Part shown: piece by piece, positions 9,893 through 41,200 of the stretch
Layout of the letters: every line of letters begins with the position of its first letter
Numbering within the stretch: the stretch's first letter is position 1
Assembly (NCBI GenBank): GCA_021108315.1
Contig: JAIORE010000190.1
Location: 2,736 to 66,735 of the forward strand
DNA: 64,000 bases
Direction of reading: 5' to 3'
From: Candidatus Cloacimonadota bacterium
Lineage (GTDB): Bacteria; Cloacimonadota; Cloacimonadia; Cloacimonadales; TCS61
Notes under the pieces: generated by a model
Databases searched by the model: none
Told to the model about the DNA's origin: nothing
What the model saw: the letters and a program-made list of their open reading frames with translations, nothing else
Position numbers and translations under genes: made by a program

Positions 9893-10036
9893 AGTATCAC
9901 AAGATCACGAGTTATCTGGACTATGCCAAAAGATGATAGTATCAATAAATAGTTTTTGCAAGTAAAATCAAGTACTAATTAGTAGATTTTTTTTCTTTTC
10001 TGAAAGCCTTTTCCTTTATGGGAAAAGGCTTTTTTG
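9893..10036 (+). pseudogene. Relic of the 3' end and terminator of a paralog of the S8 gene
   Basis: 9902-9927 is identical over 26 nt to 14020-14045. It translates as SITRSRVIWTMPKDDSINK*FLQVKSSTN* versus SITRSRVIWTMPIDESVQKLFFRVKSSTD*, with a premature TAG at 9950. The terminator hairpin is also homologous. Confidence 0.85.
10003..10036 (+). terminator. Rho-independent terminator
   Basis: AAAGCCTTTTCC-loop-GGAAAAGGCTTT followed by a T run. Confidence 0.85.
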
Positions 10037-10153: not shown

Positions 10154-10169
10154 TGGCATAACTTATGCA
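10154..10169 (+). promoter_or_regulatory. Putative sigma54 (-24/-12) promoter
   Basis: TGGCATAACTTATGCA gives GG-N10-GC, ~33 nt before ATG 10201. The core GCATAA-C-TTATGC is also a perfect palindrome. Confidence 0.6.
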
Positions 10170-10200: not shown

Positions 10201-13200
10201 ATGAAAAAAACAATTTTATTAGTTATTATCTTTGTGTTTTGTTTCAGTCTTATGGCTAAATCTTCACAGGTATTGTTCAAAATCAAAACTGAGAAATTAA
10301 AAAACCTCTCGGTTCAGCTTAGTAAAAAATGGGAAATCCAATATGCCGAAGTATTAAAGTATGCAGAAGAAAACAAAATACCACTCATTTATGAGGATGA
10401 GAACACTTTTATGAAGCTACATCATATCTCAAATACAGGACTGCCTATTTACTACAAAACAGATAATGCAACTTCTGCAAAAACTATTTCAACTGATCAT
10501 GTTCATCCGAATGGTTTATCTGGACTCTCTTTAACAGGAGCAGGCTTCCTTATCGGTGAATGGGATGGCGGACACGCTCGCATAACTCACCAAGAATTTG
10601 AGAATAGGGTCACTTATGGAGATACCTGTAGTGAACATTATCATTCTACTCACGTTGCCGGAACAATGATTGGAGCAGGAATAGATCCTTCTTCAAAAGG
10701 AATGGCTTATGAAGCAGATTTGGTTTCTTATGACTGGGATCGGGATGAAGAAGAATTATCACTAGAAGTAGCTGATGGAATGATATTATCAAACCATTCT
10801 TACGGACCAGATTTAGGATGGAGATGGGCTGGGACTTGGATCTGGATGGGAGGTCATTGGAGTGAGGAAGACAAATACTTTGGATATTATTCCAGTTCCG
10901 ATGCCGTTTTAGATACAATTGCTTATTTAGCACCCCATTATTTAATGATAAGATCTGCCGGAAACGATAGAAATGATGGTCCCGGAGATAATCCGGATCA
11001 TCAAGATGATGGACCTTGGGACTGCATAAGTCTTTCCAGTTTAGCAAAGAACATATTAACTGTGGGAGCTACTGAAGATATTACAAATGGTTATTCTCAA
11101 CCGAGCGATGTTATTCTTGCCGATTTCAGTAGTTGTGGTCCTATAGATGATGGTAGAGTGAAACCAGATATTGTCGCAAATGGGGTAGACCTTTTTTCTA
11201 CGGATGATGATAGCGATGATGCTTATCAGATTTTGGGTGGTACTTCTATGGCTTCCCCATCTGTAGCAGCTTCATTATTATTGATGCAAGAACATTATGA
11301 AAACTTGCATGGTGATGGCAACTTTATGCTTGCTGCAACCTTAAAAGGGTTGCTTACTCACACAGCGGATGAAGCAGGTCAATTTGACGGACCAGATTAT
11401 GAATTTGGATGGGGATTGATGAACACAGCAAGGATGGCAGATCATATCTCGAAAGACGGAACTTCAAATACCATAGAAGAATTAACTCTGAACAACAGTC
11501 AAATATATCAAACTACTGTAATAGCCACTGGAATAGAACCATTGAAAGCAACAATTTGTTGGACTGATGCACCGGCAATTCCACTTGCACCGAGCCTTGA
11601 TGATCCCACTCCAATGCTCGTTAATGATCTTGACATTCGTATTACTCGTAATTCAGATACTTATTATCCTTGGCGATTAAATGCACTCTATCCTCAAGCA
11701 CCTGCTTCAAAAGATGGCGATAACTATGTAGATAATGTAGAACAAGTTCTGGTTTCAAATCCAGAATCTGCAGAATATACAATTACAGTTTCTCATAAAG
11801 GGACTTTGGTTGATGAAACTTTCTCACCAACTCCTCAAAATTTCTCCTTAATCATCAGTGGATTAGCTGAAGATGATTTGATTTGTCGAATTATTGAACC
11901 TGTTAATGGAGCCGAAATAGAATCAGGATCTTTTGTCTCAATAGAAGTAGATCCTTTAGAGTTCCCGCGCTCAATAGATAGAGTAGAGTTTTTTATCAAT
12001 GATGCAACAGAACCCTTTGAAACCGAATATTCTTACCCCTATTCATGTAATTGGTCAACCTACGATTTGGAAGAAGGGATATATACGATCAAAGCAATAG
12101 CCTATGATAATGCGGATAATTCAACAGAAGATATTATTAGAATTCATTTATATGAAGATGAATATGTAAATCTGCCGTATCAAGAAGATTTTGAGAATAA
12201 CGGTGAGATGCCAGACGGTTGGAGAGAAAGTTTTTTTAACGGAAGTACTCTCTCTTGGCAATTTACTGCCGGTAATGGAGCTAATAACCCTTCAAGTGCA
12301 CATAGTGGTTCATACAATGCCCTATTAAAAGACTCAGATATTTTACCAGATGAAACTGCCTTAATAACTCCAAAGATCAAATTCAGAGAATATACAGTGA
12401 GTGCATCTATGACATTCTGGGTTCATATGGAACAGCGTTCTATCTATAAAGATAAGTTGGAAATATATTATATCGAACCCGGGAGTATTTATTGGTATAG
12501 ACTCGTTGTTATAGAAACAAATACAGATTGGCAAGAAGTAACTATGGAAATTCCGGTAAGCATTAATGGGATTTATCTCGGATTTTTCGGAAATGCAAAG
12601 AATGGATATGGCATTTGCATTGATGATGTAGAAATAAATTCTTTTGAAGCTGAACCCCCTTTTATTAGTTTAAATGAAACTTTCATAGACTATGGTATCA
12701 TTGAAGTAGGCAGTTCATTAACACAATCCTTTGCAATTAGCAATCTCGGACAAATGGAGCTTATAGGTTCCATTACCTTACCATCCGACCAATATTCTAT
12801 TTCCGAAGTAGTTACTGCTCGCAGTTCAAAAAAGAAATCTTCTAATGATAATGACAGGTTTGATATTGCTTTCGTGATTCCCGGTGGGCAATCCGAAACA
12901 TTTGAAGTACTATTTTCTCCGGAAATTACAGGTGTTTTTGAAGGACACATTGAGATCATTTCGAATACTCCTTATAATCCTACCGAAACGATCTATATCT
13001 ATGGTGAAGGTGCTGTTGCTGATATTTCCACAGATTTACCTTATCTCTACCAAACGATGTACAGTGATCAAACTTCAATATTACCATTGACCATTTTAAA
13101 TAACAGCGATGTTAATCTGAATTATCTGGCGATAGTAGAACACGCCGAGAGAACGAGAAATACGATAGATGTTCACCTTCTAAATTCAGACTATAATAGC

Positions 13201-14100
13201 GGAAGTTGTACCACGACTGAGAAAACAGAGACCAGCCTTATCAAGGGTTTTGATGATGAAGATGGTTGGATGAAATTTGACATTAGTAGTATTCCGGCAA
13301 ATGCAACTATCAATTCCGCCACTTTTAACGGTTATGTAAATGATACTTATTATCCTTATTGGAGTATTACTCCTGTAAGTTGTGATCCGATAAGTGAAGA
13401 GGCATCTATTTTGTATGAAGATATTAACTCCGAGCAATTTATTGATTATTATCTTTTTAGTAATGAGGACAATGAATTCTCAACCGGATGGAAAAATTTA
13501 CCTTTAAATAATGATGCTATCTATGATCTTCAACAAGCTATTTCTACTCAAGATTGGTTTGCCATCGGTATCGTGGGTCGCGATGCTGATCCTCAGTATT
13601 TTATCAATTTTGATGGTTGGAATGAACCGAATAAACCTTATCTTACCATTGATTATACGGTTTCTACAACAGATTGGCTAAGTATTAACGGGCAAAATAT
13701 GATTGAAGGATCTATCTTGCCAAATGAAGATTTTGAGATAGAAGTTGGTTTCGATTCAGCAACTTTACCGAATGGAATTTATGAAGCATCCATCAATATT
13801 AGTTCCAATGATCCTGATGAAAATCCTTATGTAATACCAATTACTTTAGAAATTATCGGTGAACTCATTATTCCTGATGAGATAGAAATTTCCTATGAAA
13901 ACGGTAATATTCTATTAAGCTGGCTTGATTCTGGAGCAAATTCCTATAAAGTTTTTTCTGCCCAAGATGCGAACGGTGATTTTAGTGATATAACTGAACA
14001 AGGTAATTTTTCAATAACTAGATCACGAGTTATCTGGACTATGCCGATAGATGAAAGTGTCCAGAAATTATTCTTCCGAGTAAAATCAAGTACCGATTAA
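10201..14100 (+). CDS. Secreted multidomain S8 (subtilisin-like) serine protease with Ig-like, MAM/adhesin-like and ASH-like domains and a shared non-T9SS C-terminal domain
   Basis: Signal peptide and catalytic triad GEWDGG / HSTHVAGT / GGTSMASP, plus GRVKPDIVANG and DYEFGWG. GGAGG RBS precedes ATG 10201. Confidence 0.92.
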   Translation: MKKTILLVIIFVFCFSLMAKSSQVLFKIKTEKLKNLSVQLSKKWEIQYAEVLKYAEENKIPLIYEDENTFMKLHHISNTGLPIYYKTDNATSAKTISTDHVHPNGLSGLSLTGAGFLIGEWDGGHARITHQEFENRVTYGDTCSEHYHSTHVAGTMIGAGIDPSSKGMAYEADLVSYDWDRDEEELSLEVADGMILSNHSYGPDLGWRWAGTWIWMGGHWSEEDKYFGYYSSSDAVLDTIAYLAPHYLMIRSAGNDRNDGPGDNPDHQDDGPWDCISLSSLAKNILTVGATEDITNGYSQPSDVILADFSSCGPIDDGRVKPDIVANGVDLFSTDDDSDDAYQILGGTSMASPSVAASLLLMQEHYENLHGDGNFMLAATLKGLLTHTADEAGQFDGPDYEFGWGLMNTARMADHISKDGTSNTIEELTLNNSQIYQTTVIATGIEPLKATICWTDAPAIPLAPSLDDPTPMLVNDLDIRITRNSDTYYPWRLNALYPQAPASKDGDNYVDNVEQVLVSNPESAEYTITVSHKGTLVDETFSPTPQNFSLIISGLAEDDLICRIIEPVNGAEIESGSFVSIEVDPLEFPRSIDRVEFFINDATEPFETEYSYPYSCNWSTYDLEEGIYTIKAIAYDNADNSTEDIIRIHLYEDEYVNLPYQEDFENNGEMPDGWRESFFNGSTLSWQFTAGNGANNPSSAHSGSYNALLKDSDILPDETALITPKIKFREYTVSASMTFWVHMEQRSIYKDKLEIYYIEPGSIYWYRLVVIETNTDWQEVTMEIPVSINGIYLGFFGNAKNGYGICIDDVEINSFEAEPPFISLNETFIDYGIIEVGSSLTQSFAISNLGQMELIGSITLPSDQYSISEVVTARSSKKKSSNDNDRFDIAFVIPGGQSETFEVLFSPEITGVFEGHIEIISNTPYNPTETIYIYGEGAVADISTDLPYLYQTMYSDQTSILPLTILNNSDVNLNYLAIVEHAERTRNTIDVHLLNSDYNSGSCTTTEKTETSLIKGFDDEDGWMKFDISSIPANATINSATFNGYVNDTYYPYWSITPVSCDPISEEASILYEDINSEQFIDYYLFSNEDNEFSTGWKNLPLNNDAIYDLQQAISTQDWFAIGIVGRDADPQYFINFDGWNEPNKPYLTIDYTVSTTDWLSINGQNMIEGSILPNEDFEIEVGFDSATLPNGIYEASINISSNDPDENPYVIPITLEIIGELIIPDEIEISYENGNILLSWLDSGANSYKVFSAQDANGDFSDITEQGNFSITRSRVIWTMPIDESVQKLFFRVKSSTD

Positions 14101-14121
14101 TTATTAAATTCTCCTCTCCTG

Positions 14122-14157
14122 ATAGCCTTTTCCTTTATTGGAAGGGGCTATTTTTTT
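14122..14157 (+). terminator. Rho-independent terminator of the S8 gene
   Basis: ATAGCCTTTTCC-loop-GGAAGGGGCTAT followed by a T run. Confidence 0.8.
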
Positions 14158-14297
14158 GTATTCACTATTAGTTTGTTTGCTTATCACTATAAGTTATGGA
14201 AGACAACAGGATTTTTATTCAATTTTATAAGTTAAAAAAAATATTATTATTATTTACAAAATAAAATATAATAAGTAATAGATTAGAAAATAATAAT

Positions 14298-14461: not shown

Positions 14462-14851
14462 ATGAGTTTGTTCTATAATATCGTGAAACGATTTAATCCG
14501 GCAAAACCGGCAGAACCCCCTAAGTACCACGCAGTTATCAAAAGTGATGGAATAGTAACTATCAGTGATATAGGAAAGAGGATCACTGCAAGTAGTGCCT
14601 TTACCCGGGCAGATGTAATTGGTTTGATGTATGGCTTGATGGATGTAATCGCAGATGAATTGAAGGATGGCAAGATAGTCCGTATTGATCCGTTGGGAAC
14701 TTTCACTTTGAAAGCAAGAAGTAGAGGAGCAGAAGACCCGAGCAAATTCACATCTCGCCGGATTGATGGAGTGAAGCTGCATTTTTCTCCTCATAAGGAA
14801 TTTCTCGATGAATTGAGAAATGTTCATTGGAAAAAATGGAAGCCTTTTTGA
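14462..14851 (+). CDS. HU-family (Bacteroidota-type, extended) histone-like DNA-binding protein
   Basis: ITASSAFTRADVIGLM...ELKDGKIVRIDPLGTFTLK...VKLHFSP pattern; AAGGAG RBS. Confidence 0.88.
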   Translation: MSLFYNIVKRFNPAKPAEPPKYHAVIKSDGIVTISDIGKRITASSAFTRADVIGLMYGLMDVIADELKDGKIVRIDPLGTFTLKARSRGAEDPSKFTSRRIDGVKLHFSPHKEFLDELRNVHWKKWKPF

Positions 14852-15218: not shown

Positions 15219-15674
15219 ATGCCCCAATCATTATCAAAAATATCATTACACATCGTATTTTCCACAAAATATAGATTCGGATTTTTTACAGATAGAGATA
15301 TAAGAAACGATGTTCATTCATATATTGCAGCAATTTTTAACAAAAGAGGAGCAACAGCAATAAAAGTCGGAGGTGTAGCAGACCATATTCATATTTTATG
15401 TTTACAATCAAGAGAGGAATTGATAAGTAAAACAATTGGTGAGGCAAAGCGTTCATCAAATTTGTGGTTGAAAGAAAAGTATGATATATTTTCAAATTTC
15501 AGATGGCAGAAAGGTTATGGAGTTTTTTCAGTAAGTGAATCTCATATCAATAGAGTAACAAAATATATAGAAAATCAGGAAGAGCATCATTATAAAACAT
15601 CATTTAAAAAAGAATATAGAACATTATTGAAAAAATATAAAATTGAATATGATGAAAAATATGTTTGGGATTGA
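15219..15674 (+). mobile_element. tnpA: IS200/IS605-family HUH (Y1) transposase TnpA, RAYT-like; no tnpB
   Basis: MPQSLSKISLHIVFSTKYR, HUH motif DHIHIL, WQKGYGVFSVS and catalytic Tyr in KYIENQEEHH. Flanked by REP-like units. Confidence 0.92.
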
Positions 15675-15732: not shown

Positions 15733-15866
15733 CAGCACAGCCTATTCGCTGCACTCAAAGACAATGCTGACATTCTATAAGCCCTTTGGGCTAAAGATAA
15801 GACAATGCTGAATCTATTCTCCAAAGGAGATAAAGAATATACAATAGGGTTGCGCAGCTATCCTAT
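15733..15866. repeat. REP/REPIN-like composite palindromic unit (right copy)
   Basis: Same three hairpins as the left copy with changed stem bases (ATAGGGT-loop-ATCCTAT); overlaps the start of the next ORF. Confidence 0.85.
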
Positions 15867-18800
15867 ATGTGTAATCCTCCTCCTATTCCTCCTGATCTCT
15901 ACAATTCTCTTCTCAAAAACAACAAGATTCTCCTCGCCCATCATCAGGCAGCAATCCTTTCACAATGTGGAAGCGGATTCTTCACTATCCCTCATATATC
16001 ATCCGATTATCATAAATTCCGAAACAGTTATATCAGATTCGATTCTATTAAACAAACATATTGATTACAAGATAGATTATCAAAAATTTGAGTTGATTCC
16101 TTTCAAACCATACAAAAACCTCGGAATAGAATATATGATCTATCCACCAGATATACTGAGAGAATTTTCGCTATATGAATATATTGATATCAAAGACACT
16201 TTAAATTTCACACGGAAAACTAAAAGAAAGCAACTTTTTTCCTCAACTACAAAACTAAATATCACTGGTTCAAAAACTATTTCGGTAAGTGTAGCAAATG
16301 ATGCAGATTTCAGCTTGGATCAATCATTATTCCTAAAGATGAGCGGAGAACTCAGCAACAATATGATGATCGAAGCCCAGCTTTCCGACAGCCAATCACC
16401 TATAACCCCAGAAGGTGATACTCGCGAACTCAGCAGTTTGGATAAGATATTTCTCCGTTTGTATGGCAAACAATATGAACTCTCTTTTGGTGATTTGGAG
16501 ATGGAATTTACCGATACATACTTTCTTAATTATACTCCAAAGTTCGAAGGATTGAAAGCAGGTTGGTTCAAACAAAACAAGTTTTATGGTGCTCTGGCAA
16601 TCTCCAAAGGGAAAAAGACATCCGTAACATTCAATGGGATTGATGCAAATCAAGGACCCTATTATTTGCAGGTTGAGAACAATACGGGAGTGAGGGTTAT
16701 TCCCGGTTCGGAAAGCGTATTTTTGGATGGAATATCCTTAGGACGAGGGTCTGATTATGTTATAGATTATGCTGATGGAAGTATCATCTTTGCTAATAAA
16801 CATTTTATCTCCGACAAATCGTTCATTCAGGTTACATTCCAATATTCTGATGATAATTATAAGCAAAATATGTATCTAACTTCTTATGAAATAAAGCTTA
16901 CTGATAAGGTGAAGCTAAATTTTTCACTCATCAATGAACAAGATGATAAGAATAATCCTCTGGAATATGTTTTTACAGATGCTGATCTGGATAGCCTGAA
17001 AAATGCCGGTGATACGGCAACCATCGGGCAAGGAATCTTTGAAGTTGAAGAAGGCATCGGTGCTTATGAACTCTCCGAAACAGGAGATTATTATGTTTAT
17101 ACAGGCTCTGATTCTACCGGAAGTTACAATATCTTCTTTGTATATCAGGGATATCAGCAGGCTGATTATGAAATTTCCGATTTTGGAGATTATTATATTT
17201 ACGTTGGCGATAATGAAGGTTCTTATATCATTGGTAAGAGTTTAAAAGCTCCCCAGAATAAAACGAACCTTGATCTCAAGTTTTCTTTTGAGAATGACTT
17301 GCTAAAAATATACTCAGAAGGTTTTTATTCAAATCTTGATAAAAACACTTTTTCTAGTATTGATGATAAAGATAATAATTCATTTGCGACTTTTTCAGAG
17401 ATTCAAATATCACCTGATCTGGATAAGATCAAGCCTGTTCTCACTTTGAACTACCGAAAGATTACAGATAATATTGCTACTTTTAGCGAGTTTGTTGATC
17501 CTCTTGATAACTTTGAAATGATTCAAATAGCAGATTCCCTTGCCAGTGATGAGGTTGGTGCAAAACTCAGTTTGAACTTTTCAGAAATATATATTCCATC
17601 TTGGAAGGTAAAGCATAAATTAGTAAAAAACTATGCTAAACAGAACTTCTTTGAATGGAAAAACAAGATAAATCAAACACACATTATTCCTGATTTAAAT
17701 TACAGATTATTGAATATAAATCAGAGTTTCTCTGATAAAAATGATAGTTTTATTGTGAAAGAGAGTAATCTTTCCCTGCACGATTTGAAGACATCTTACT
17801 TGATAAAGAAAATAAGGATAGGAACAAATTACAATTATAGTAAGAACAATACATCATACATATATCCTCCTGATTTTGAATTTACAAAAGTACAGCATAA
17901 ATATTTTTTTAAAACTGAGAACATATCCAAGTTTTCCGGAGAATTATTTTATCTCGAAGCAAAAGAAGATTCGCTATATTCTCATGAAGAAAACAAACAC
18001 ACCGAAAAGACAAATACGATCGGTATAAAATCACTTTTGAATACAAAGTCTCACTCCTTCCAGATAGCCTTATCTCATATTGTAATTAACGATACGCTCT
18101 CAAAGTCGTATGATCTAATTGATTTCTCCACTCGAAACTATTTTCTCAAGGAAGCGATCACCATTCGGACAAGCTATGGAATCAAGAATTTACAGTTTTA
18201 TCCAAAGATCAAAGAGTTCATCTATGTTGGAACAGATAATGGCTCTTATTATGCTGATACAACTTATGTGGGATTGGGAGAAGGCAATTATGATTGGGAG
18301 ATTACCGGAACAAATTACAAAGATCCTGAATTATCTGTAGAGGTTAATGCAAATATTCGAACTTTTATCACTCCTAAAATGATAATGGATAACTATCTCA
18401 AGAGATTTCAGTGGGAAACTCACCTTCAAATTATAGAAAATTCAAAAGCTACAGATCGAAGGAAAGTCTATTATTTTCACCCCGATTTCATAATGAATGA
18501 TGAAGAAACATTGCATGGACAACATATTTTCAGAAATATATTCTGGTATGAACTCATTCCGCATAAATTGACTCATAGAACTACTTTTGAGCGAAAGAAA
18601 ACTCTAGATAATCGTTATCAAGATATAGATAAAACTCTTTCAGATGATTGGGAATTTTCCTTAACACTATCTAAATTCTATAAAACAAATTTGGAATTGA
18701 TCTATGAAAATAAAAAGCAGGAAGAGAGCCATTATAATTCTAAAACAAAGACAGATATGATAAATTTGGATATCAGAAACCGTTTATTCAGTGAAACGAG

Positions 18801-19140
18801 CCTTACTTCATCAATTAGATATATTTCAGAGACAGGTAGTAGCCTTTCGAGTTATGGTTCTTATGATTTGAAAAGTATTGAGATTTCTGAGAAAACAAAT
18901 TTCTATTTCTTTAAGAAGTACCGGCTTTTTGGAAAATTTACTTACAAGAAAAATATGCGCTCAGGTGATTTTCTAAGCTCTATAAATGAAAAGAAAAATG
19001 GAAATATTTTCAAATGGTTCTTCACTATTGATTATCGTTTTAATAATTATACAACTGTAAATCTCGAATATTCAGGCAAAAAATATCCGGATGATAAGTC
19101 GCAACATAAAATGGAATTAGAGGTGAAGGCTGAGTTTTAA
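15805..19140 (+). CDS. Large outer-membrane beta-barrel protein with SprA/Sov-like N-terminal segments
   Basis: Signal-peptide-like VILLLFLLISTILFS, ITGSKTISVSV..DQSLFLKMSGELS and GPYYL...GSESVFLDG..GRGSDYVIDY..GSI motifs, amphipathic strands and terminal Phe (VKAEF). True start uncertain (15805 or TTG 15850). Confidence 0.6.
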   Translation: MLNLFSKGDKEYTIGLRSYPICVILLLFLLISTILFSKTTRFSSPIIRQQSFHNVEADSSLSLIYHPIIINSETVISDSILLNKHIDYKIDYQKFELIPFKPYKNLGIEYMIYPPDILREFSLYEYIDIKDTLNFTRKTKRKQLFSSTTKLNITGSKTISVSVANDADFSLDQSLFLKMSGELSNNMMIEAQLSDSQSPITPEGDTRELSSLDKIFLRLYGKQYELSFGDLEMEFTDTYFLNYTPKFEGLKAGWFKQNKFYGALAISKGKKTSVTFNGIDANQGPYYLQVENNTGVRVIPGSESVFLDGISLGRGSDYVIDYADGSIIFANKHFISDKSFIQVTFQYSDDNYKQNMYLTSYEIKLTDKVKLNFSLINEQDDKNNPLEYVFTDADLDSLKNAGDTATIGQGIFEVEEGIGAYELSETGDYYVYTGSDSTGSYNIFFVYQGYQQADYEISDFGDYYIYVGDNEGSYIIGKSLKAPQNKTNLDLKFSFENDLLKIYSEGFYSNLDKNTFSSIDDKDNNSFATFSEIQISPDLDKIKPVLTLNYRKITDNIATFSEFVDPLDNFEMIQIADSLASDEVGAKLSLNFSEIYIPSWKVKHKLVKNYAKQNFFEWKNKINQTHIIPDLNYRLLNINQSFSDKNDSFIVKESNLSLHDLKTSYLIKKIRIGTNYNYSKNNTSYIYPPDFEFTKVQHKYFFKTENISKFSGELFYLEAKEDSLYSHEENKHTEKTNTIGIKSLLNTKSHSFQIALSHIVINDTLSKSYDLIDFSTRNYFLKEAITIRTSYGIKNLQFYPKIKEFIYVGTDNGSYYADTTYVGLGEGNYDWEITGTNYKDPELSVEVNANIRTFITPKMIMDNYLKRFQWETHLQIIENSKATDRRKVYYFHPDFIMNDEETLHGQHIFRNIFWYELIPHKLTHRTTFERKKTLDNRYQDIDKTLSDDWEFSLTLSKFYKTNLELIYENKKQEESHYNSKTKTDMINLDIRNRLFSETSLTSSIRYISETGSSLSSYGSYDLKSIEISEKTNFYFFKKYRLFGKFTYKKNMRSGDFLSSINEKKNGNIFKWFFTIDYRFNNYTTVNLEYSGKKYPDDKSQHKMELEVKAEF

Positions 19141-31400: not shown

Positions 31401-31555
31401 CAAGTGGAACATTCGATAATAACCGCTGGACAGCTATAGCAACTGAAGAACGTAGATTCTATTATGTAACTGCTTCGACGGATATTGTGGTAAGGAACAG
31501 CGTTATAAAGCAAGGGTTAAGAAACGAGAGGAATCGATTTAATAACAGAAAATAG
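22484..31555 (+). CDS. Giant secreted multidomain protein 1 (LamG, two parallel beta-helices, FN3, HDPPG domain, Ig/BACON-like repeats, shared CTD)
   Basis: AAGGAGG RBS, signal peptide, LamG (LNFDGVDDYV...MDEVRIWN), GGAI-type beta-helix repeats and DIGAYEY/DMGAYEY caps. Confidence 0.85.
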   Translation: MSKKTNLFAVLTILLGMVFLIPTTVFATDIFRGTALNFDGVDDYVEIPDDTSLDFDTSYTLECWIYPGSFDYLAGLITKYHTAQGFTLRLSGSSPYSGIGFDDMETDTGILNAYHWYHIAAVNDNGTRHVYVNGIEKTLSGTPITFTPNNDPVCLGVDYLSSPRYFEGRMDEVRIWNVARTETQINDKMNTFLSGTETGLVSYYQLNEGSGITANDPISSNNGTLTNMTEDDWIPSSAPIGVGGTISTDTVWDAETINVISDITINDGVTLTINPGTTVYFQDYYALNVQGRILAEGTENDPINFTAHPVYHWQGIRFDYTPATNDSTKFKHCNFEYGEGIQNSWNEFNGGAIYTRLFSKILIDHCSFTNNYARYYGGAICLEMAHPTIANCTFDNNTAWKGGAIYGYYSSPDISKCVFENNQAEHIYNNGSGEGGAIYYYENGAMLVSQCLFSGNTAEDKGGAISYNNISLIRFQNCIFQENTSDNQGGAINCNVGTITLYNCTIVENAALNYGGAINIESTSNSEIYNCIIYDNTSAEGQINIMGTGGIQAIEYCNIEGGFAGITGAGSGASFNGIYEDCIDYDPGFTDAANDDYSLLSNSYCINGGDSYYNQNYNGEFDIAGNDRKFNSANGTGNLNDLLSRVDIGAYEYSAESGILPEYSSSLYYDGIVNYDLIILPDFTFTLNSSSNFEFDENAGLYIYGTLEASGSSYNNITFTASNESNGWDGLNFISTEGAGKSSNLEYCYIQFGQGNIYIENYDYLTLTGCTIENGIAENGGGIYSENCQLDMYDNILNNNHADLNGGGIYSNNCQLQMYSCDIDNNHADLNGAGFYSENSDLDIVNCIITNNQADQTGGGLYINNIETRMINLTIADNSAGTQAGAFEITNYSGNQPQIANCIIWNNGSNPIYPTAGSLTNVTYCDVENSYPGSNNQDFDPDFTDEVDDPYMISNHSSCLNRGIQDTTGYSLPDEDFAGNPRIHGHFEPIYDRIDMGAYEYEGTSAPYAFNASDGDNDFPGYVQLQWWYDFDYEPAPQSFWIARYPDILNQLDPGSFSYSDYTAIPGEVYEYMIVAMIDIENEFSASEPNSGYIKPNGIISGTVLSVNNNPVAGVKVSLDPSSGYCLEFDGSSDSLSIDDPEVNMDNDFTIECWFKTTGSDEIILSKGAHNFKVNASGQVEYTDGTNTIVQDSLLANDNEWHHLAVVNDVTGSRTLLYFDEYEVARDSSFTFSGSSSAGFATSDYTGFLDNIKIWTVARDSSDIVDGKDIVTAWDSPGLAGYWALNEGVGNTIFDATNYNHSGSIIGCDWSEFEPGVLMGAFTNEWGEYLISQINYGSSTTFSVIPYKSGHVFQPEQRQITLSESNIAQNDVDFTDNSLIPITGYVKFQGTECPVVGATIMLNGSPFVPITLVDEDGYYVIEVEHGTECIVSVEYQDHIFNRFWNLGEVTYPHTDKNFDDTFKTQFRCNVVGGDDSYPIGEFDVTIQSVNGCYYDEITGANWTTGGIMVPNLPPLDFNVTVDPAGDDPFNLEIDEQFQNLKTALISLTNTDEILDTLQFVWKADLEIEVTWSDTLVSYTFTEYPDNEFYVLQQNEWCAIEISAFEDYSYDAHPNQITYLDDCGLSIRDEVGTQGITETVFQDTTLTTYTFAPYLPNILSGYDRQYQNMMEITVEDTDLNRYATQTDWILTEGVKPLESTYATTSPEIPFLILHDPPGDGSFSSFGQSSSHSIAMSSAVCTDSELDMFAKIHLGPDVTTSIGIFYSVEVDVDVTMDLNMGFTLGTTQTRSQEQELTFTTSTEYSTSDDDQVIGAGSDLFVGGAMNLIWGVTNVISWDEIEQDVIVDTSVMVSPNGFATVYVYTDNQIRNTVIPNLEALGDTASVALWNTYLINNENNKASAVPNPNHPQNLSFNAGAGYSYEEETNTTISQTIEFETTVSNEFGFEIGATVNGVGGEFGFTYRTQMTIGSSSNSEFSTETETHFTLADDDETSDLNELADYFTLDVKVDPVYGTPVFDLVSGGSSCPWEPNTIPREGVALSANTYTASNLLSGEEAAFILTLGNTSQTSEDRRYYLTVLHGSNPGGAIVKINGVPLEERMAFDVIGGETVQAIMTVEQGPFAYEYDDLTLEFYSDCNRGKDGPDGHYFDMFKSFDIYWEAPYSRISINSPEDDWIINKVNDDTLDILLTDYDLTKPDFQSIKLQYKHPQDENWFPAFEIFRDSLLSHPHYIEVSWDVSGISDGFYEIRAATTDSVQADYFTESLSGVIDRTSPELLVDPFPQDEILEPEDEIALIFMEAIDPLSVNPANFSLIITRNGMSIGHDITYFENAVYLNPNIANFWFENETLEAEVSGLKDLYGNEMEVPISWEFYVNSNPVNWNVTKLDVIKPLGETMTLTANLINDGGQHYSYVFTDYADSLYHPELQYHAPDWLSITPTSGQLIPLDSQEISFEISDQIGFGHYETIIYAHTSMGNEAIEIEVDVLSNPPDWSITEFNNFQSSMSIIGELDFEGELSTDTNDIIGAFIQEESEDWVCRGVANIESVPYILGHPYQIFLTIYSDLDDPVRNLGTGKNSRTEDEIRFRVWDNSENKEYYQVDHTVFGGTLMYLANEVYGTPLNPISMTTVADMVQDIPLASGWTWFSTNLDIVPNIINDVLGSLNPVDEDYIKAQTQYAQYLTDSWYGTLTSLSNTAMYKIKMAEAQNLEIIGELRDPFEITISYSTGWNWISYIPHVSMSVNAALSDRTNIAGDFIKNQAGYAFYVDSDIGWIGSLRFMNPDEGFMLYSSGTGSFEYPEYNIRGKDDFPDLTPLVLRDAPDWSFNPQDFEYTASVTIELQINAIPATSGNYMVGAFVGEDCRGSVTSIPVFDTYMYFLTVFSNTQNEDISLKIYDADADEIIDPAHSFTFNNDLILGSPSTPYELEIAGALDIPQNIIIEIIGSEVQLSWDEVAGANSYKIFASDDPNGDFTDATASGTFDNNRWTAIATEERRFYYVTASTDIVVRNSVIKQGLRNERNRFNNRK

Positions 31556-32298: not shown

Positions 32299-35200
32299 AT
32301 GTCTAAAAAAACTTGTTATCTATTTATTTTAATTCTGATAGCAGTATCAGCTTTTGCCGATTCACCAGGGAATTGTTTGGATTTTGATGGAACTGATGAT
32401 TATGTTAATTGTGGTAACAGTACTGAGTTGAATATTACGACTAACATCACAATAGAAGCCTGGGTATATTACGAAGGTGGAGAAACATTTCCACGAATAA
32501 TAGACAAATATCCTGCTCCAAGTATATATATTGCAGAATCCTCAGATCAGGTTGGATGGTATGGTGAAGTAAATGGTGTGGCTCGTGATTTTATTTTTTC
32601 CGGTGCATTAGTTCCGCGAAACGAATGGACACACGTTGCCGTTACTTATGATGGAAGTGGCATCAAGGCTTACATCAATGGGAGTTTAGAGAGTACAGAA
32701 AACTATAGTGGTCATCTAACTGTCACAACAAACAATTTGCTGATTGGTAATAATACTACTGAAAACAGAACTTTTGGCGGCAAGATTGATGAAGTACGTC
32801 TTTGGGATAGTGCTCGAAGTCAGTCAGAAATATCTAACAATATGAGACAACAACTGTCAGGAACAGAGTCAAATTTAGTATCCTACTGGATGTTTGATGA
32901 GAATAGTGGCACGACTGCTTTTGATACAGCCGGCAGCAGTGATGGAACACTTACTAATATGGACAGTTCTGCTTGGACAAACTCAACAGTTCCCTTTATT
33001 TCGGATACAACAGGTTATACACTGAATTTCGATGGAACAAATGATTATGTGGATTGCGGAAATGATCCGAGTTTGGACATTACAAATTCGATTGCAATTG
33101 AGGCTTGGATAAAAGCAGAAAGTTGGGCACCTTATATATGGGGAGGAACAATATTGAGTAAAGGTGGTTCAGGAAATACGGGATATGTGCTTCGTTGTGG
33201 AGATAACGGTAGTTTAAATTTTGTACTGGGAATGAATACAGGCTGGGTCTATACATCATCATCTGCAATTATGCAAATCGGTGAATGGAATCATATTGCA
33301 GGTGTTTACAACGGCTCATCTTTAAGACTTTATATCAATGGAGAGATTGTTGATGAACAATTTGTTTCCGGCGATATTGGAGTTTCACCAAATAACATAT
33401 ATATCGGAGAAAGTCCGCAATATCCCAACAGATATTTTCAAGGGCAAATTGATGAAGTGCGCATTTGGAATGCTGCTCGAACACAAATTGAGCTAAACCA
33501 TACAATGCATACTTCTCTTACCGGCAATGAAGCCAACCTTGTTTCATACTACCAATTTAATGCAGGAGAAGAGTTAATTGCCTATGACATGGTCTCTGCC
33601 AATAACGGCACTATGACCAATATGACAGAAGACGATTGGGTTCCTTCAGATGTTCCTTTTGGAGTAATTGTAAACGGCACTATTTCCACCGATACAATTT
33701 GGGATGATGAATTAGTAATTGTAACCGGAGATATTACGGTAAATCAGGGAGTTTCTTTAACGGTTAACCCCGGCACAACAGTGTTTTTTACCGGAGAATA
33801 TTCGCTGACTATCAACGGGAAAATGCTTGCAATAGGTACAGAAGCCGAGATGATCTCTTTTACCTCAAGTGAAGGTGTTCATTGGAAAAGTGTTTTATTT
33901 ATACCGGATGACAACCTATGTGTTTTTGAACTTGAATACTGTATTTTTGAAAACGCTTATCTTGATAATAATGAACCCGGAAGGGAAGGTGGTGGGGCTG
34001 TATATATTGAGGCTATTGATGATTATGAAATATCAATTAAAAACTGCCTATTTCAGAACAACAGAGCTGAAAAGGGTGGGGCAATCTATGTAAGAGCCTT
34101 TGACAGTGGTTTCGTAAACAATACCTTCTCAAACAATAATGCTGAATACGGAGGAGCAATTTATTTTGGAGATTACTCTGATTATAATCACGTAATGCAC
34201 TGTGTTTTTAAGGATAATAGTGCTGTCCAAAGCGGTGGTGCAATATACGTTGAATTTGAACAAGCTATAGTAAGTTGTCTGTTTTTTGATAACGAGAGTA
34301 TAAGCGGACCGGGAGGAGCAATTTTTTATGATGGCGGTTTTGGCAGTCTTATCAATTGTACAATTACAGAAAATAGTGCACCGGCAGGAGCAGGAGTAGC
34401 TTTTAATAATGGCTCTCCACAAATTGCAAATTGTATAGTGTATGGTAATGTAGCGAATGATAACTCACAAATAAATATCATTGGAACAAATTGGCAACCC
34501 TCTTTTCTAAATTGCCTTATTGAAGGTGGAAAAGCAGCTTTTTCGGGAGATTCCTTTAACCGTTATTATGGAGATTGTAAAGATTATGATCCTGAATTTA
34601 CTGATCCTGTCAATAACGACTATACTCTCACTTCCGTTTCTCCCTGCATCAATGCCGGTCATATCGAAACATCTTTCTACCTAAATGATTGGATAATTGA
34701 AATAGAACTTGATCCGTTAACAAGGAACATTGATCTGGACGGTAATGACAGATTCTTTGATGAAGTAGATACTCAAAGTGGGGATTTAGATTTATCACTT
34801 GATTGTATTGATATGGGTGCCTATGAATATTCTTATAGTAGTGGAATTATTGGTGCCACTTATTATGAAGGTGGAGGTGATGCTGCTGTTATCCCAATTG
34901 ATATACATATTGCAAAAGGGGTTACCTACGGTATGGGCGGTGAAACCTGGAAATTTCAGAATGGAGCATCTCTTTATATTCATGGTCAGTTAGAAGTGGA
35001 GGAATGGGTCTTGTATGAGTATAGCACTGTTTATAGGACAACGTTTCAACCTTATGACGAATTCTCAGATTTTGGGGGGCTACATTTTGTTTCCACAGAT
35101 CCAACTGCTACATCTCAATTGAAATATTGTATCGTTGATGGTGGTATAGGAAATGCAGGCATAGAGAGTGAATATGGCGGGAATATATCTGTTTACAATT

Positions 35201-38200
35201 ACAACGAAGTAATAATAGAAAACTGCATTATACGTAATGGTTCTGGTCAAAAGGGTGGAGGAATATATTCTAAAAACTCAAGTTTGATACTAAGAAACAC
35301 TGTATTATCTGACAATGAAGCATCTGTTAGCGGTGGTGGACTTTTTTCGGACAACTCGGATGTTAGTATTATAAATTGTACAATCGGAGGAAACAGCTCC
35401 AGCTCAGATGGTAGTGGACTACGTTTTGAATCTATAGGCACACAACCGCAGATAATAAATTCAATTATCTGGGATAATGAAGCAAATCCGATTTATCCAG
35501 TAGGTAGTGCTCTCACAAATGTCACTTATAGCGATATTGATGTTTATTATGCAGGTCAAGGCAATATCTCGGTTGATCCGCAATTTAAAATTACGGGAGA
35601 ACATCCCTATGGCATTGAGGGAGGATCTTATTGTATTAATGCAGGTATTCCGGATACTATCGGTTTGAATTTCCCTGATTATGATATTTACGGGAATTAT
35701 CGTATTTTTGCACATACGACCTCTTCCTACGACAGGATAGATATTGGTGCTTATGAAGTACCCGGAATACTAGCTCCTTCACCTTTTACTGCTTCTGATG
35801 GTAATAATGATTTTCACGGTTATGTACAATTGAATTGGGAATTTAATAATCCCGATCCTAACTGGAATCCTACGCCTATCCAATTCAGGATTCTTAGAAA
35901 TGGTGTTAATATAAACACTATAGATGCTAACACCTTCTTTTATCAGGATGATACAGCTATTCCCGGTGTAATATACAGCTATGTTGTTCAAACCATAGCA
36001 GATGAACAAACAGGAAATTCGGCAGAGAACAGCGGATTTATCAAACCAAATGGTATTATAACTGGAACGGTGCTTACTACAAACAATAATCCTGTAGAGG
36101 ATGTAAAAGTTTATCTCAATCCATCTACCGGTTATTGTCTGGAATTCGATAGTGCAAATTCATCTCAATTTATTACCGAATCACCGGCAGTGGATATGGA
36201 TTTGGACTTTACTATTGAATTATGGGTGAAAACCTTGATGAGTAATATTGTGTTGATGAACAAAGGTGATCATAATTTTAGTGTGAACAGCTCAGGAAAT
36301 CTGGAATATACCGATGGCATGAACACACTGGTGCAAAGCTCTCGTACAAACGTAAATGACGGAGATTGGCATCATATCGCTCTCGTAAGTGATGCAATGA
36401 ATTTAATGAGCACGTTATATCTTGATGAAGTTATCGTTGCATCGAATACAGGATTTGCTTTTAGCGGTTCTTCTGACGAAGGTTTCTCATCATCATTATC
36501 TTTTACAGGATATTTAGACGATCTCAGAATTTGGTCAACTGCACGTGATTCATCTGATATTGTGGATAGAATGGATATTACTGCATCAATTGATAATGAG
36601 GATTTAGCAGGATATTGGGCTTTGAACGAGGGTGTAGGAAATACTGCTTATGATGCTACAGATTATGCTCATCACGGCTCTATAAGTAATTGTGATTGGT
36701 CTGCTAATGAACCCGGAATATTGCTGGGAAGTTTTACAGATAGTTGGGGAGAATATATTATTCGTGATATAGCCTATGGATATGCAACTACTTTTCAGGT
36801 TATTCCATTTAAGTCTGGTCATCTTTTTCAGCCGGAACTTAGGAATGTGACAATCAGTGAGAGTAATATTGCTCAAAACGGTATTGATTTTACCGACAAT
36901 TCTTTGGTTCCTATTTCAGGGCATGTTTTGTATCAAAATACTCTTGTACCTGTTGCAGGAGCTACAATCTTGTTAAATGGACAAACAGCAACTCCACCGA
37001 CATTTACAAATGAAGAAGGCTATTATGTGCTGGAAGTTGAACATGGTACTCAAAGTATTGTTTCCGTGGACTATGAAGATCATATTTTTAACAGGGAGTG
37101 GCATCTTGGGGCAGTTACTTTTCCACAGGTAAATAAAGATTTTGAAGATACTTTTAAAGTTGATTTCAGACTTGATGTTGTAGGAGGTAACGATTCTTAT
37201 CCAATCGGAGATTTTGAAGTTACTCTGCAATCAGTAAACGGTTATTATAATGATTTGATTACAGGAGAAGACTGGAGTTCCGGTGGAATTTTGGTGTCTG
37301 CCCTTCCACCAATTGATTACAATGTTACAGTTGACCCTATTGGACTTGATCCATTCAATCTGGTTTTAGATGAGCAGTTCCAGAATATAAAAACAGATTT
37401 GATTACACTTAGTCAGGTAGATTCCACATTGGATTCACTGCGTTTTGTTTGGAAAGCACCATTGGAAATTTCAGTTGCCTGGTCCGATACACTTAATTTG
37501 TACAGTTTTCCCGAATATCCCGAAAGTGAATTTTATGTACTTGAACAAAACATTTGGGCAGATGTGGCAATTCAAGCTTTTGAAGATTATAGTTATGTTG
37601 ATCATCCTGATCAGGTTACATATCTTGATAATTGCGAGATTGTGATTTCCGACGATGTAGGAACTCAAGGAACAACCGAAACAGCTTTTCAAGATTCAAC
37701 AACATTTACATATACATTCGCCCCGTATTTACCAAATATGCTGTCGGGATATAATCGACAGTATCAGAAACAGATTTCATTTACGATTCAGGATTCAGAT
37801 TTAAATCGGTATTGTTCCCAAATTGATTGGGTGCTAACAGAAGGCGCTAGACCACAAGAAACAACTTATTCATCTACATCGCCTGATATTCCTTTTATGA
37901 TCTTGCACGATCCTCCCGGAGATGGTAGCTATGCAACCTTTGATGAAAGTAGTTACATTTCCTACTCTTTTGATATTGCTGCTTGCACCGATTCGGAACA
38001 TTCACTTTATTCAACACTTCACCTTGGAAATAATTTTACTGCAAGTATAGGTTCTATATTTTTTAGTGTAGAATCCAAAGTAGAAGTTATAGTTGATATG
38101 GATTTAGGGTTTTCGCGTAGGGTTGTACAAAATGATAGCAATCAGTATGAGTATACTATGACTACTACCGAGTCATATTCAACATCTTCCGATGACCAGT

Positions 38201-41200
38201 TAATTGGTAGGAGATCTGATCTGTTTGTTGGCGGAGCGATTAATCTTATATGGGGTACTACACATGATTTAGCTTGGGATAATTTGACTCAAGATGTTAT
38301 TATTGATACAAGTGTAATGGTAACTCCAAATGGTTTTGAAACTGTTTATGTCTATACTGAAAATCAAATAAGAAATACAGTGATTCCTAATTTAGAAACA
38401 ATTGGCGATACTGCTTCTGTTACCCTCTGGCAAGGTTTTCTTGATGCAAATGAGGATAATATTGATTTTGCAGTTTCTAATCCCAATCATCCTGAAAACG
38501 TGTCATTTAATGCCGGAGCAAGTTACTCATACACAGAAACGACTAATAGAGATTATACTGAATCAGTAACGTTTGAAACGATTCTTGATTATGAAGCAGC
38601 TTCTACGATTGGCTTGGTTGTTAATGGGCACGGTGTAGAAGGAGGTTATGCTTTCAGTACAATTATTTCAAATAAACGAAACTATACTGACGGTGAAGGA
38701 ACAAGTACTAAAACTTCTTTTACATTAGCAGATGATGATGAGACCTCAGACTTAAACTTTCTTGCTGATTATTTTACTGTCGATATAAAACAAGATACTG
38801 TCTATGGAACTCCAGTTTTTAATTTACTTTCAGGGGCATCATCGTGTCCATGGGAACCGGAAACATTGCCAAGAGAAGGTGTTTCGTTTACTGCAACTCC
38901 AAGTTCCGTAAACGGATTACTTCCCGGGGAGCAAGCTGTATTTTTGCTATCTCTCGGTAATACAAGCCAAACAAATGAGTACCGCAGATATTATCTGACT
39001 CAAAATATGACAGCTAATCCGGGTGGAGCAGTTATTAGGGTAAATGGATCCATTTTGGGTGGAACAATGACATTTGATGTACCTGCCGGAGAAGTTGCAG
39101 AAGCCATAATGACCGTTTCTCAAGGACCGTTAGCTTACGAATATGAAAACCTAACTCTGGAATTTTATACTACTGGAGATAGAGGTCATGAAGGACCCGA
39201 AGGTCATGATTTCTATGTCTTCAAAGAATTCGATGTATATTGGGAACCACCCTATAGCAGAGTTTCAATAGATTCACCATCTGACAACTGGATATTAAAT
39301 CAGGCAAATGATGATACTTTGGATATTTTTCTTACGGATTATGATTTAACTAAACCAGACTTCGCTTCAATAAAATTGCAATACAAGCATCCACAAGATG
39401 AAAACTGGCTTCCGGCTTTTGAGATATTCCGAGACAGCTTGGAATCATCTCATCCGCATTATATTGAAGTCCCTTGGGATGTTTCAGGAATTTCAGATGG
39501 ACTTTATGAGATCAGAGCAGCAACAACAGACAGTGTACAAGCAGATTATTACACGGAAAGTTTGTCTGGAATTATAGATAGAACTGCACCGATCCTGTTT
39601 AATCAACCGGAACCTCAAGATGAAATTCTGGAACCAGGAGATGAAATTCTTTTAACTTTTGTAGAAACTATAGATCCAGCATCAATCAATCCGTCAAATT
39701 TCTCTCTTGAAGTCATTAGTACTGGAATGCAAATTGGGATAGATATAACCTGCGTCGATAATATGGTTAATCTCACTCCCAATATCGCAAATTTCTGGTT
39801 CGAGAATGAGACTCTCGAAGCGGAAGTTTCCGGACTTCGAGACCTTTATGGCAATACAATGGAAGCCCCAATAACTTGGGAATTCTACGTAAACAGTAAT
39901 CCTGTTAATTGGAATGTAACTAAACTTGATGTGATCAAACCACTTGGGGAATCTATGACTTTGACCGCAAATCTTATTAATGATGGTGGACAATACTATT
40001 CCTATGTGTTCACAGATTATGCAGATTCACTTTATCATCCACTGTTGCAGTACCACACTCCTGATTGGCTCTCTATTACTCCAACTTCTGGTCAGTTGAT
40101 TCCACTTGATTCTCAGGAGATCAGCTTCGAGATCAGTGATCAAATAGGATTTGGGCATTATGAAACAATCATCTACGCTCACACTCCGATGGGAAATGAA
40201 GCTATTGAAATTGAAGTTGATGTGCTTTCCAACCCACCGGATTGGACGATTACGGAATTCAACAACTTCCAAAGTTCAATGAGTATTATCGGAGAGCTCA
40301 ATATCGAAGGAGGTCTTTCAGTCGATACAAATGACATAATCGGTGCATTTATGCAAGAAGAAAGCGGAGATTGGGTTTGCCGCGGAGTTGCCAATATTGA
40401 AGCAATTCCCTATATTCCCACTCATCCGTATCAGGTTTTCCTGACGATCTATAGCGATCTTGACGATCCGGTGCGAACCGAAGATGAGATCATATTCAGG
40501 GTTTGGGACAATTCTGATAACAAGGAATACTATCAGGTCGATCATTCTGTATTTGGTGGAACATTGATGTATCTTGCCAACGAGGTTTATGGAACTCCCC
40601 TGAATCCAATAAGCTTGGCAACTGTTAACGATATGGTTCAGGATATTCCTCTCAATTCGGGTTGGACGTGGTTCAGTACAAATCTGGATCTTGTTCCCAA
40701 TACTATCAATGATGTTCTTGGTTCACTTAGCCCGATAAATGCTGATCTCATCAAAGCTCAAACACAATATTCTCAATACTTAACTGACTCGTGGTTGGGA
40801 ACTTTATCATCACTTAACAATACTTCGATGTATAAGATAAAAATGGCAGAAGCACAGAATTTGGAAATAATAGGTGAATTGCGAGATCCGGTTACTACCA
40901 CTATTTCTTATAGCACAGGCTGGAATTGGATAGGTTACATTCCGCACGTGAGTATGAGTGTGAATGAAGCACTGAGCGATCGTACAAATACAGCCGGAGA
41001 TTTCATAAAGAACCAAGCTGGCTACGCTTTTTATGTTGATTCCGATATTGGTTGGATTGGTTCTTTGCGATTTATGAATCCCGACGAAGGTTTTATGCTT
41101 TATTCGTCAGGAACAGGTTCATTTGAATATCCCGAATATATTATCAGATCGAAAAATGATTATCCAGATTTAACTCCGCTTGTTCTCAGAGATGCACCGG

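Follow-up and report, generated by a model that had tools for sequence, protein, structure and literature searches.

The systems closest to the element described here are the C-terminal domains (CTDs) of type IX secretion system (T9SS) cargo, of which types A and B are distinguished, the fibronectin type III (FN3) domain, and a module of Fibrobacter succinogenes, termed BTD or Fpm-1, whose role was long obscure before it was proposed to be a T9SS CTD (PMC3079729, PMC6851124). The element itself is a C-terminal tail on proteins encoded in a 64,000-nucleotide stretch of DNA, referred to here as the window, from a Candidatus Cloacimonadota bacterium (GenBank assembly GCA_021108315.1, contig JAIORE010000190.1, positions 2,736 to 66,735 of the forward strand). 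The Cloacimonadota are an uncultured phylum, abundant in anaerobic digesters and anoxic sediments, and a full-text search of the literature on this phylum and T9SS found no description of such a tail module. The genome analysed spans 4.7 Mb in 456 contigs and is about 95% complete. Judged by profile homology and a predicted structure, the tail is a lineage-specific branch of the FN3 domain, with six strands (A, B, C, C', E and F) and without the edge strand G, and it is tentatively read as an alternative C-terminal module for envelope sorting or anchoring, probably linked to T9SS.

Three proteins encoded in the window end in the tail, and a fourth, a C25 peptidase, provides an in-window contrast by ending in a classical CTD:

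10201–14100, + strand: S8 subtilase gene, 1299 aa counted from MKKTILL, with another ATG upstream at 10165
13864–14097, + strand: FN3-type tail of the S8 protein, 78 aa, with the stop at 14100
22454–31555, + strand: giant 1 gene, 3033 aa, with a signal peptide, LamG, beta-helix (PMP repeats) and Ig-like domains
31265–31483, + strand: FN3-type tail of giant 1, 73 aa
31484–31552, + strand: basic C-terminal extension of giant 1, 23 aa, IVVRNSVIKQGLRNERNRFNNRK, of the K/R-rich extension class
32299–41889, + strand: giant 2 gene, 3196 aa, a paralogue of giant 1
41530–41886, + strand: FN3-type tail of giant 2, 119 aa, ending ...FYYVVASTE before the stop
47030–47284, + strand: classical T9SS type A CTD of the C25 peptidase, YPNPFNP...KKMLMMK before the stop

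The S8 protein is built, in order, of a signal peptide, Peptidase_S8, Big_7, choice-of-anchor J and D domains (both NCBIfam matches), Ig-like domains and the FN3 tail, which closes with FFRVKSSTD, so that the stop follows three residues past strand F. An alignment of the S8, giant 1 and giant 2 tails has 29 invariant columns, and the likeness between S8 and the giants is confined to the tail (BLASTP 43% identity over 88 aa, E=9e-12, for S8 against giant 1). The giants are 58% identical to each other across about 3000 aa and, being paralogues, reduce the independent tail carriers in the window from three to two. The tail of giant 2 is lengthened by a 46-aa polar and basic insertion in the C'–E loop. 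Polar, basic inserts of 25–46 aa occur at this one fixed site in giant 2 (41700–41840) and in at least four other tails of the genome, with no similarity to one another. A first-pass annotation, made from the letters of the window, had noticed the tail shared by these three proteins and the PNPFNP/FlgD-type CTD of the C25 peptidase; both observations stand, the latter with a TIGR04183 score of 35 bits and matches to PF18962 and FlgD_ig at the C-terminus of the peptidase gene (42143–47284), while the tail has proved far more widespread, on about 80 open reading frames (ORFs) of the genome.

Scans against Pfam and NCBIfam gave nothing above threshold on the window's tails. A profile built from 49 tails of the genome, searched against solved structures, matched the Fn3-like protein 3mpc (E=5.5e-10) and 5g56 (4e-8), and 12 of the 49 tails taken singly matched PF00041, the best at E=3.7e-5 and under the gathering score. 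Searched against 1.8 billion representative proteins, a profile of the three window tails returned 10,396 matches, the best of which carry up to 43 tandem copies; those examined among them are arrays of PF00041, the strongest at E=3e-77. AlphaFold2, given the 49-sequence alignment, returned a model of pLDDT 90, a six-stranded sandwich whose final strand reaches the C-terminus, while the S8 end modelled as a single sequence reached a pLDDT of 42 and was not used. Foldseek comparison of the former with the PDB gave weak matches only, to Ig and FN3 folds (TM 0.5–0.6, best E=7e-3), and the fold assignment therefore rests on the profile search. The suggestion, made in passing by the first-pass annotation, that the tail might be an FN3-like cap is thus upheld as regards the fold, by the 3mpc match, the AlphaFold2 model and the PF00041 arrays; membership of the FN3 superfamily also means that the fold is not new.

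Within the 49 tails W30 is invariant, and Y38, A35, P14 and F80 are conserved in at least 90%. The core FN3 residues are present, namely the Trp in strand B, the GAxxY motif in C and the aromatic YYV of strand F; conserved motifs of the tails are the W, GAxSYKVY and KFYYVxA, and SSxDPxxxFxEDxxGxFxxxSW is specific to the subfamily. For comparison, a canonical FN3 model of 99 positions was drawn from 13 internal repeats of a CTD-bearing giant of the same genome (consensus ...TYEYFVTAIYEEGESEPSNVVEVEV). Aligned to it, the tails stop at position 72–74 of 99 and the protein ends 1–2 residues further, so that the G strand of the canonical repeats (GESxPSNxVxV) is absent; it is missing because the chain stops just after strand F. 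The canonical FN3 repeats of this genome, by contrast, lie in internal tandem arrays and have strand G. Since what the tail lacks is an edge strand, the domain may be stable alone.

What follows strand F is short in many cases: in 29 proteins 2–3 residues remain, as in KFYYVKAVN and stop, the remainder having 4–47, and 36% of tails lack any extension. The extensions are rich in K and R (25.5% against a background of 11.4%). In about eight ORFs (for example on C246, C104, C247 and C38) strand F is followed by (I/V)GFDGTxxELxxFIExN..., a stretch that looks like an amphipathic helix and not a basic tail.

The three-tail profile recovers 71 ORFs from the same genome, with E-values down to 1e-43, far above chance, and a refined profile finds 97 domains in 91 ORFs, nearly all of them single-copy. 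The domain lies within 50 aa of the stop in 80 of the 97 cases and within 5 aa in 56; these 80 include ORFs of 2566, 3696 and 107 aa on contig C1. A first heuristic assigned signal-peptide-like N-termini to 65 of 74 tail ORFs and a stricter one to 58 of 64, the share among other ORFs being 31%. The passengers are mostly large, surface-type proteins, including proteases, nucleases, beta-helix and LamG proteins and Ig giants, with a median length of 1002 aa against 692 aa for CTD proteins. The genome has 34 complete ORFs that reach 1500 aa or more and carry a signal peptide; the tail closes 22 of them and a CTD seven, and the other five have neither. A test proposed with the first-pass annotation, a profile search for strictly C-terminal location, thus had a divided outcome: global matches are mainly internal tandem FN3 domains, while those in this genome are terminal and accompanied by signal peptides. 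Likewise, at the level of the superfamily the domain belongs to a defined family whose matches are mostly internal, which does not hold for the subfamily.

The relation of the tail to the type A CTD was examined through a census that used an iterated profile seeded with the CTD of the window's C25 peptidase. This found 246 type A CTD ORFs in the genome. None of them belongs to the terminal-tail set, whereas six of the 17 internal FN3 matches lie within CTD proteins. A CTD-bearing paralogue (E<1e-10) exists for 59 of 80 tail passengers; in one such pair a tail protein of 1889 aa and a CTD protein of 1910 aa are 47% identical over 1553 aa, and in several the homology extends up to the junction, beyond which one protein has the tail and the other the CTD. 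The same junction is seen in the closest full-length homologues of S8 elsewhere, P0156 and P0158 (38–40% identity, 94% of the length), which align as far as S8 residue 1218, immediately before the tail, and continue with a different FN3-like domain that keeps its G strand, followed by a PNPFNP-type CTD. The tail occupies the slot of the CTD, as had been noticed from the window, and the further claim that it is neither a type A nor a type B CTD also held, both against the family models, as detailed below, and in an hhalign comparison of the tail profile with a profile of 120 of the genome's own type A CTDs, which gave a probability of 0.5%.

A pattern scan with one genome per species located 43 loci, nearly all labelled Cloacimonadota, with a few Delongbacteria, in which the module is again terminal, one Margulisbacteria-labelled metagenome-assembled genome (MAG) and two Bacteroidia-labelled MAGs. 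The majority of these proteins end in ...KKFYYVKAVN or alike, while a deltaproteobacterial match is an ordinary tandem FN3 that continues ...AVNAAGESAGS.... When 151 genomes spread over the phylum were searched with a tight profile (E<=1e-10), 107 of them, from 39 of the 53 genera, gave matches, at 1 to more than 37 copies each; in complete genomes of other families 16 of the 20 top matches are C-terminal. All tail-bearing genomes tested also have T9SS cargo, and T9SS-bearing genomes may be without the tail; type A CTDs were present in each of the five carriers whose labels fall outside the phylum. Family f12, with genomes of 1.6 Mb, has neither type A CTDs nor terminal tails, and shows giant tandem FN3 arrays only. 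Two complete genomes of this family (G002 and G005) have frames of 3,300–11,000 aa with tandem FN3-like repeats, G002 giving 120 matches.

Genes for T9SS components are present in the genome (PorU-like, 410 bits; PorV-like, 155 bits; SprA, 442 bits), and no autotransporter barrels were seen on the giant tail proteins. Substrates of the type I secretion system lack Sec signal peptides. Since Sec-exported proteins of 300–400 kDa have no other plausible outer-membrane route here, a link between the tail and T9SS is favoured.

Two candidates for a partner were tried and rejected. The first, a predicted 1111-aa outer-membrane protein encoded in the window at 15805–19140 (C-terminus ...VKAEF), was tried in the role of dedicated translocon. 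It proved to be a core gene that occurs once per genome and is shared by 57 of 60 genomes of the family, among them those without strong tail matches. It has no Pfam, NCBIfam or PDB match, its likeness to SprA being a 24-bit local match. The second lies at C72:5214-11216, where a PorV/FadL-like gene is followed by two tail proteins, one with a lamin-tail domain and the other with an endonuclease/exonuclease/phosphatase and a lamin-tail domain. As a cognate shuttle it fails, being a core gene in 143 of 151 genomes; in none of its 12 orthologous loci does the downstream gene carry a tail, so the synteny is not conserved.

A cluster of three genes recurs in the genome (C1:7023-18323, C144:2448-9287 and C162:4514-8888). 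The first encodes a beta-helix repeat protein of about 1500 aa with an FN3 tail; the second a protein of 470–830 aa whose C-terminus is a conserved domain, LIDHPxDPANKYLxHSxVESPDMMNVYNG, without a Pfam match; and the third a protein of 157–167 aa with three SxNYxL repeats and an FN3 tail. The small SxNYxL protein is also found in other Cloacimonadota (L036, L037, L039 and L041). The repeats were considered as general donor strands and rejected, the motif being confined to three small-protein ORFs.

From the fold family, the truncation, the numbers and the phyletic spread, together with a subfamily that is terminal and single-copy, sits on unrelated exported passengers, is cut at the same strand, excludes and exchanges with the CTD and forms the majority ending of giant exported proteins, we infer a sorting or anchoring role, a T9SS route and a mode of docking. 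Tentatively, at a little short of an even chance, we read the tail as an alternative C-terminal module that sorts proteins to the envelope or anchors them there, with a probable link to T9SS. The tail would mark Sec-exported proteins to cross, or to stay on, the outer membrane, most likely by way of T9SS; no other system present is known to transport Sec-exported proteins of 300–400 kDa. The free F-strand edge may dock onto an envelope partner or an anionic surface polymer, and the K/R-rich extension, found on about half of the tail proteins, may also serve in docking. A bolder and more doubtful form of this reading is that the G-strand-less FN3 tail constitutes a third class of T9SS C-terminal signal or anchor, preferred for giants in Cloacimonadota and Delongbacteria, in which the shuttle or anchor would read the open F edge, possibly by strand complementation.

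Several observations weigh against a sorting or anchoring module of this kind. The tails have no match at E<=1-10 to the type A CTD models (TIGR04183 and PF18962), and the NCBIfam and Pfam models of the type B CTD (TIGR04131 and PF13585) do not match them either. Their ends also differ, as the residues past strand F vary in number from 2 to 47, while 216 of the 246 CTD matches run to the last residue. No PorP/SprF-type adaptor (TIGR03519) was matched in the genome, nor in control genomes; no co-varying or syntenic partner gene of the tail was found, and neither was an adaptor gene conserved beside the tail cargo genes. The smaller carriers could also leave by way of secretins, of which the genome encodes five. 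Type A CTDs number 52 to more than 150 in family f7, where tails are absent, and T9SS therefore does not need the module. In one or two ORFs of the genome (for example a 219-aa ORF on C220), and in the other four of the 20 top matches from complete genomes, a signal peptide is followed by the FN3 module and an FGE-like domain, so that the module stands at the N-terminus and is not strictly C-terminal. This architecture, a signal peptide, an N-terminal copy of the FN3 subfamily and then an FGE/sulfatase-modifying-factor-like domain, as in L090, L092, L096 and L099, is the main exception to the terminal rule. Lastly, FN3 domains are common inert spacers and frequent linkers in bacterial surface proteins. 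The proposal of the first-pass annotation, that the tail is a sorting or anchoring signal, therefore stands as a well-supported candidate: the terminal position, the export and the exclusivity with the CTD support it, while the N-terminal FGE-like copy and the want of a partner or machinery do not.

The last of these points leads to the main rival, in which the tail is no more than an FN3 cap or spacer that paralogy and domain shuffling have spread, export and localisation being set by other parts of the protein. The tail is indeed FN3 in sequence and fold, the family serves often as a linker, the N-terminal copies, the variable end past strand F and the lack of a partner gene are readily accommodated, and family f7 manages without tails. 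For a neutral cap there is nevertheless no reason to expect a single terminal copy in 80 of 97 instances, truncation at one strand across unrelated passengers and 39 genera, a place at the end of 22 of the 34 giant exported proteins, or complete avoidance of the CTD when internal FN3 matches do lie in CTD proteins; the genome's canonical FN3 repeats, moreover, are internal, tandem and retain strand G. This explanation is accordingly considered somewhat unlikely.

An improbable second rival is that the tail acts in docking or ligand binding only, attaching the protein, from either end, to an envelope component or an external substrate after export by another signal. Such a role would suit a module seen at both N- and C-termini, with K/R-rich extensions and a missing edge strand that could accept a strand in trans, in a genome where secretins are present. 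It leaves 22 giant Sec-exported proteins without a recognisable outer-membrane export signal, however, and 36% of tails lack the extension; no donor-strand candidate emerged, SxNYxL being limited to three small proteins, and no chaperone- or usher-like genes were seen. A decayed architecture, in which an ending of FN3 plus type A CTD has lost its CTD and the proteins are released, mislocalised or becoming pseudogenes, recalls the S8 homologues that end in an FN3-like domain and a type A CTD, the genome's proteins with an internal FN3 followed by a CTD, and a relic tail at 9893 (below), but is very improbable in view of the common end point of intact ORFs across about 80 genes and 107 of 151 genomes, the clear conservation of the tails (W, GAxSYKVY and KFYYVxA), and a pre-CTD domain in P0156 and P0158 that is of another sequence type and keeps its G strand.

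The relic and the 3' flank of the S8 gene have a hairpin in common:

9893–9982, + strand: relic of an S8-type FN3 tail, the last ~29 codons, with an internal TAG, followed by a hairpin copy at about 10003–10035
14123–14157, + strand: terminator-like hairpin and T-run 3' of the S8 gene, common to the relic

The relic translates as SITRSRVIWTMPKDDSINK-stop-FLQVKSSTN-stop, and with its hairpin is 84% identical in DNA to the S8 3' end plus terminator (14010–14175), in agreement with the match that the first-pass annotation had reported at 9893. Relic and hairpin (9893–10035) adjoin the 3' side of a histidine-kinase gene, and would seem to be what is left of a tail gene after loss or rearrangement. 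The idea that the tail is a recombination cassette conserved in DNA was rejected, as S8 and the giants share ~43% amino-acid identity and likeness at the DNA level is found in the relic only. Between the S8 gene and the outer-membrane protein gene lie those of an HU-HIG DNA-binding protein (14462–14851) and an IS200-like Y1 transposase (15219–15674).

Should the tail prove to sort or anchor proteins, a new class of outer-membrane export cargo would be defined in Cloacimonadota. Predictions of secretomes and adhesins would change, since current T9SS predictors miss about 80 proteins here, among them two thirds of the giant exported ones, and a compact tag of ~75 aa would become available for surface-display tests. 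On a more modest reading too, the tail is a clear case of FN3 specialised into a truncated terminal module, and provides a natural 'choice-of-anchor' series in which to study the exchange of C-terminal modules.

Compared with known systems, the tail resembles the pilins completed by donor-strand complementation (chaperone-usher and type V) in having an Ig-like fold minus a terminal strand, with an edge or groove that could receive a strand in trans, but differs in that no chaperone, usher or donor-strand motif was found for it. With FN3 (PF00041; 3mpc) it shares profile homology, core residues and the predicted beta-sandwich, and differs in having six strands and not seven through the loss of strand G, in being single and terminal, and in falling mostly under the Pfam threshold. 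The Fibrobacter BTD/Fpm-1 module, the nearest precedent, compared via the literature only, is likewise lineage-specific, basic and paralogous, and stands at the C-terminus of many enzymes that an FCB (Fibrobacteres–Chlorobi–Bacteroidetes) bacterium exports; BTD overlaps TIGR04183, whereas the FN3 tail does not. Like the type B CTD (TIGR04131; SprB-SprF), the tail is a second C-terminal class that occurs beside type A and on giant, adhesin-like cargo, although it has no sequence match to type B, no PorP/SprF gene was detected and no conserved adjoining adaptor accompanies it. It differs from the type A CTD in showing no HMM or profile–profile likeness, in having six strands against seven, in its variable end and in its occasional N-terminal position. 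The two correspond in form and setting: both are beta-sandwiches of ~75 aa that form the very end of Sec-exported proteins in an FCB host with T9SS, and both are attached at a shared junction, at which tail and CTD are interchangeable among paralogues and homologues.

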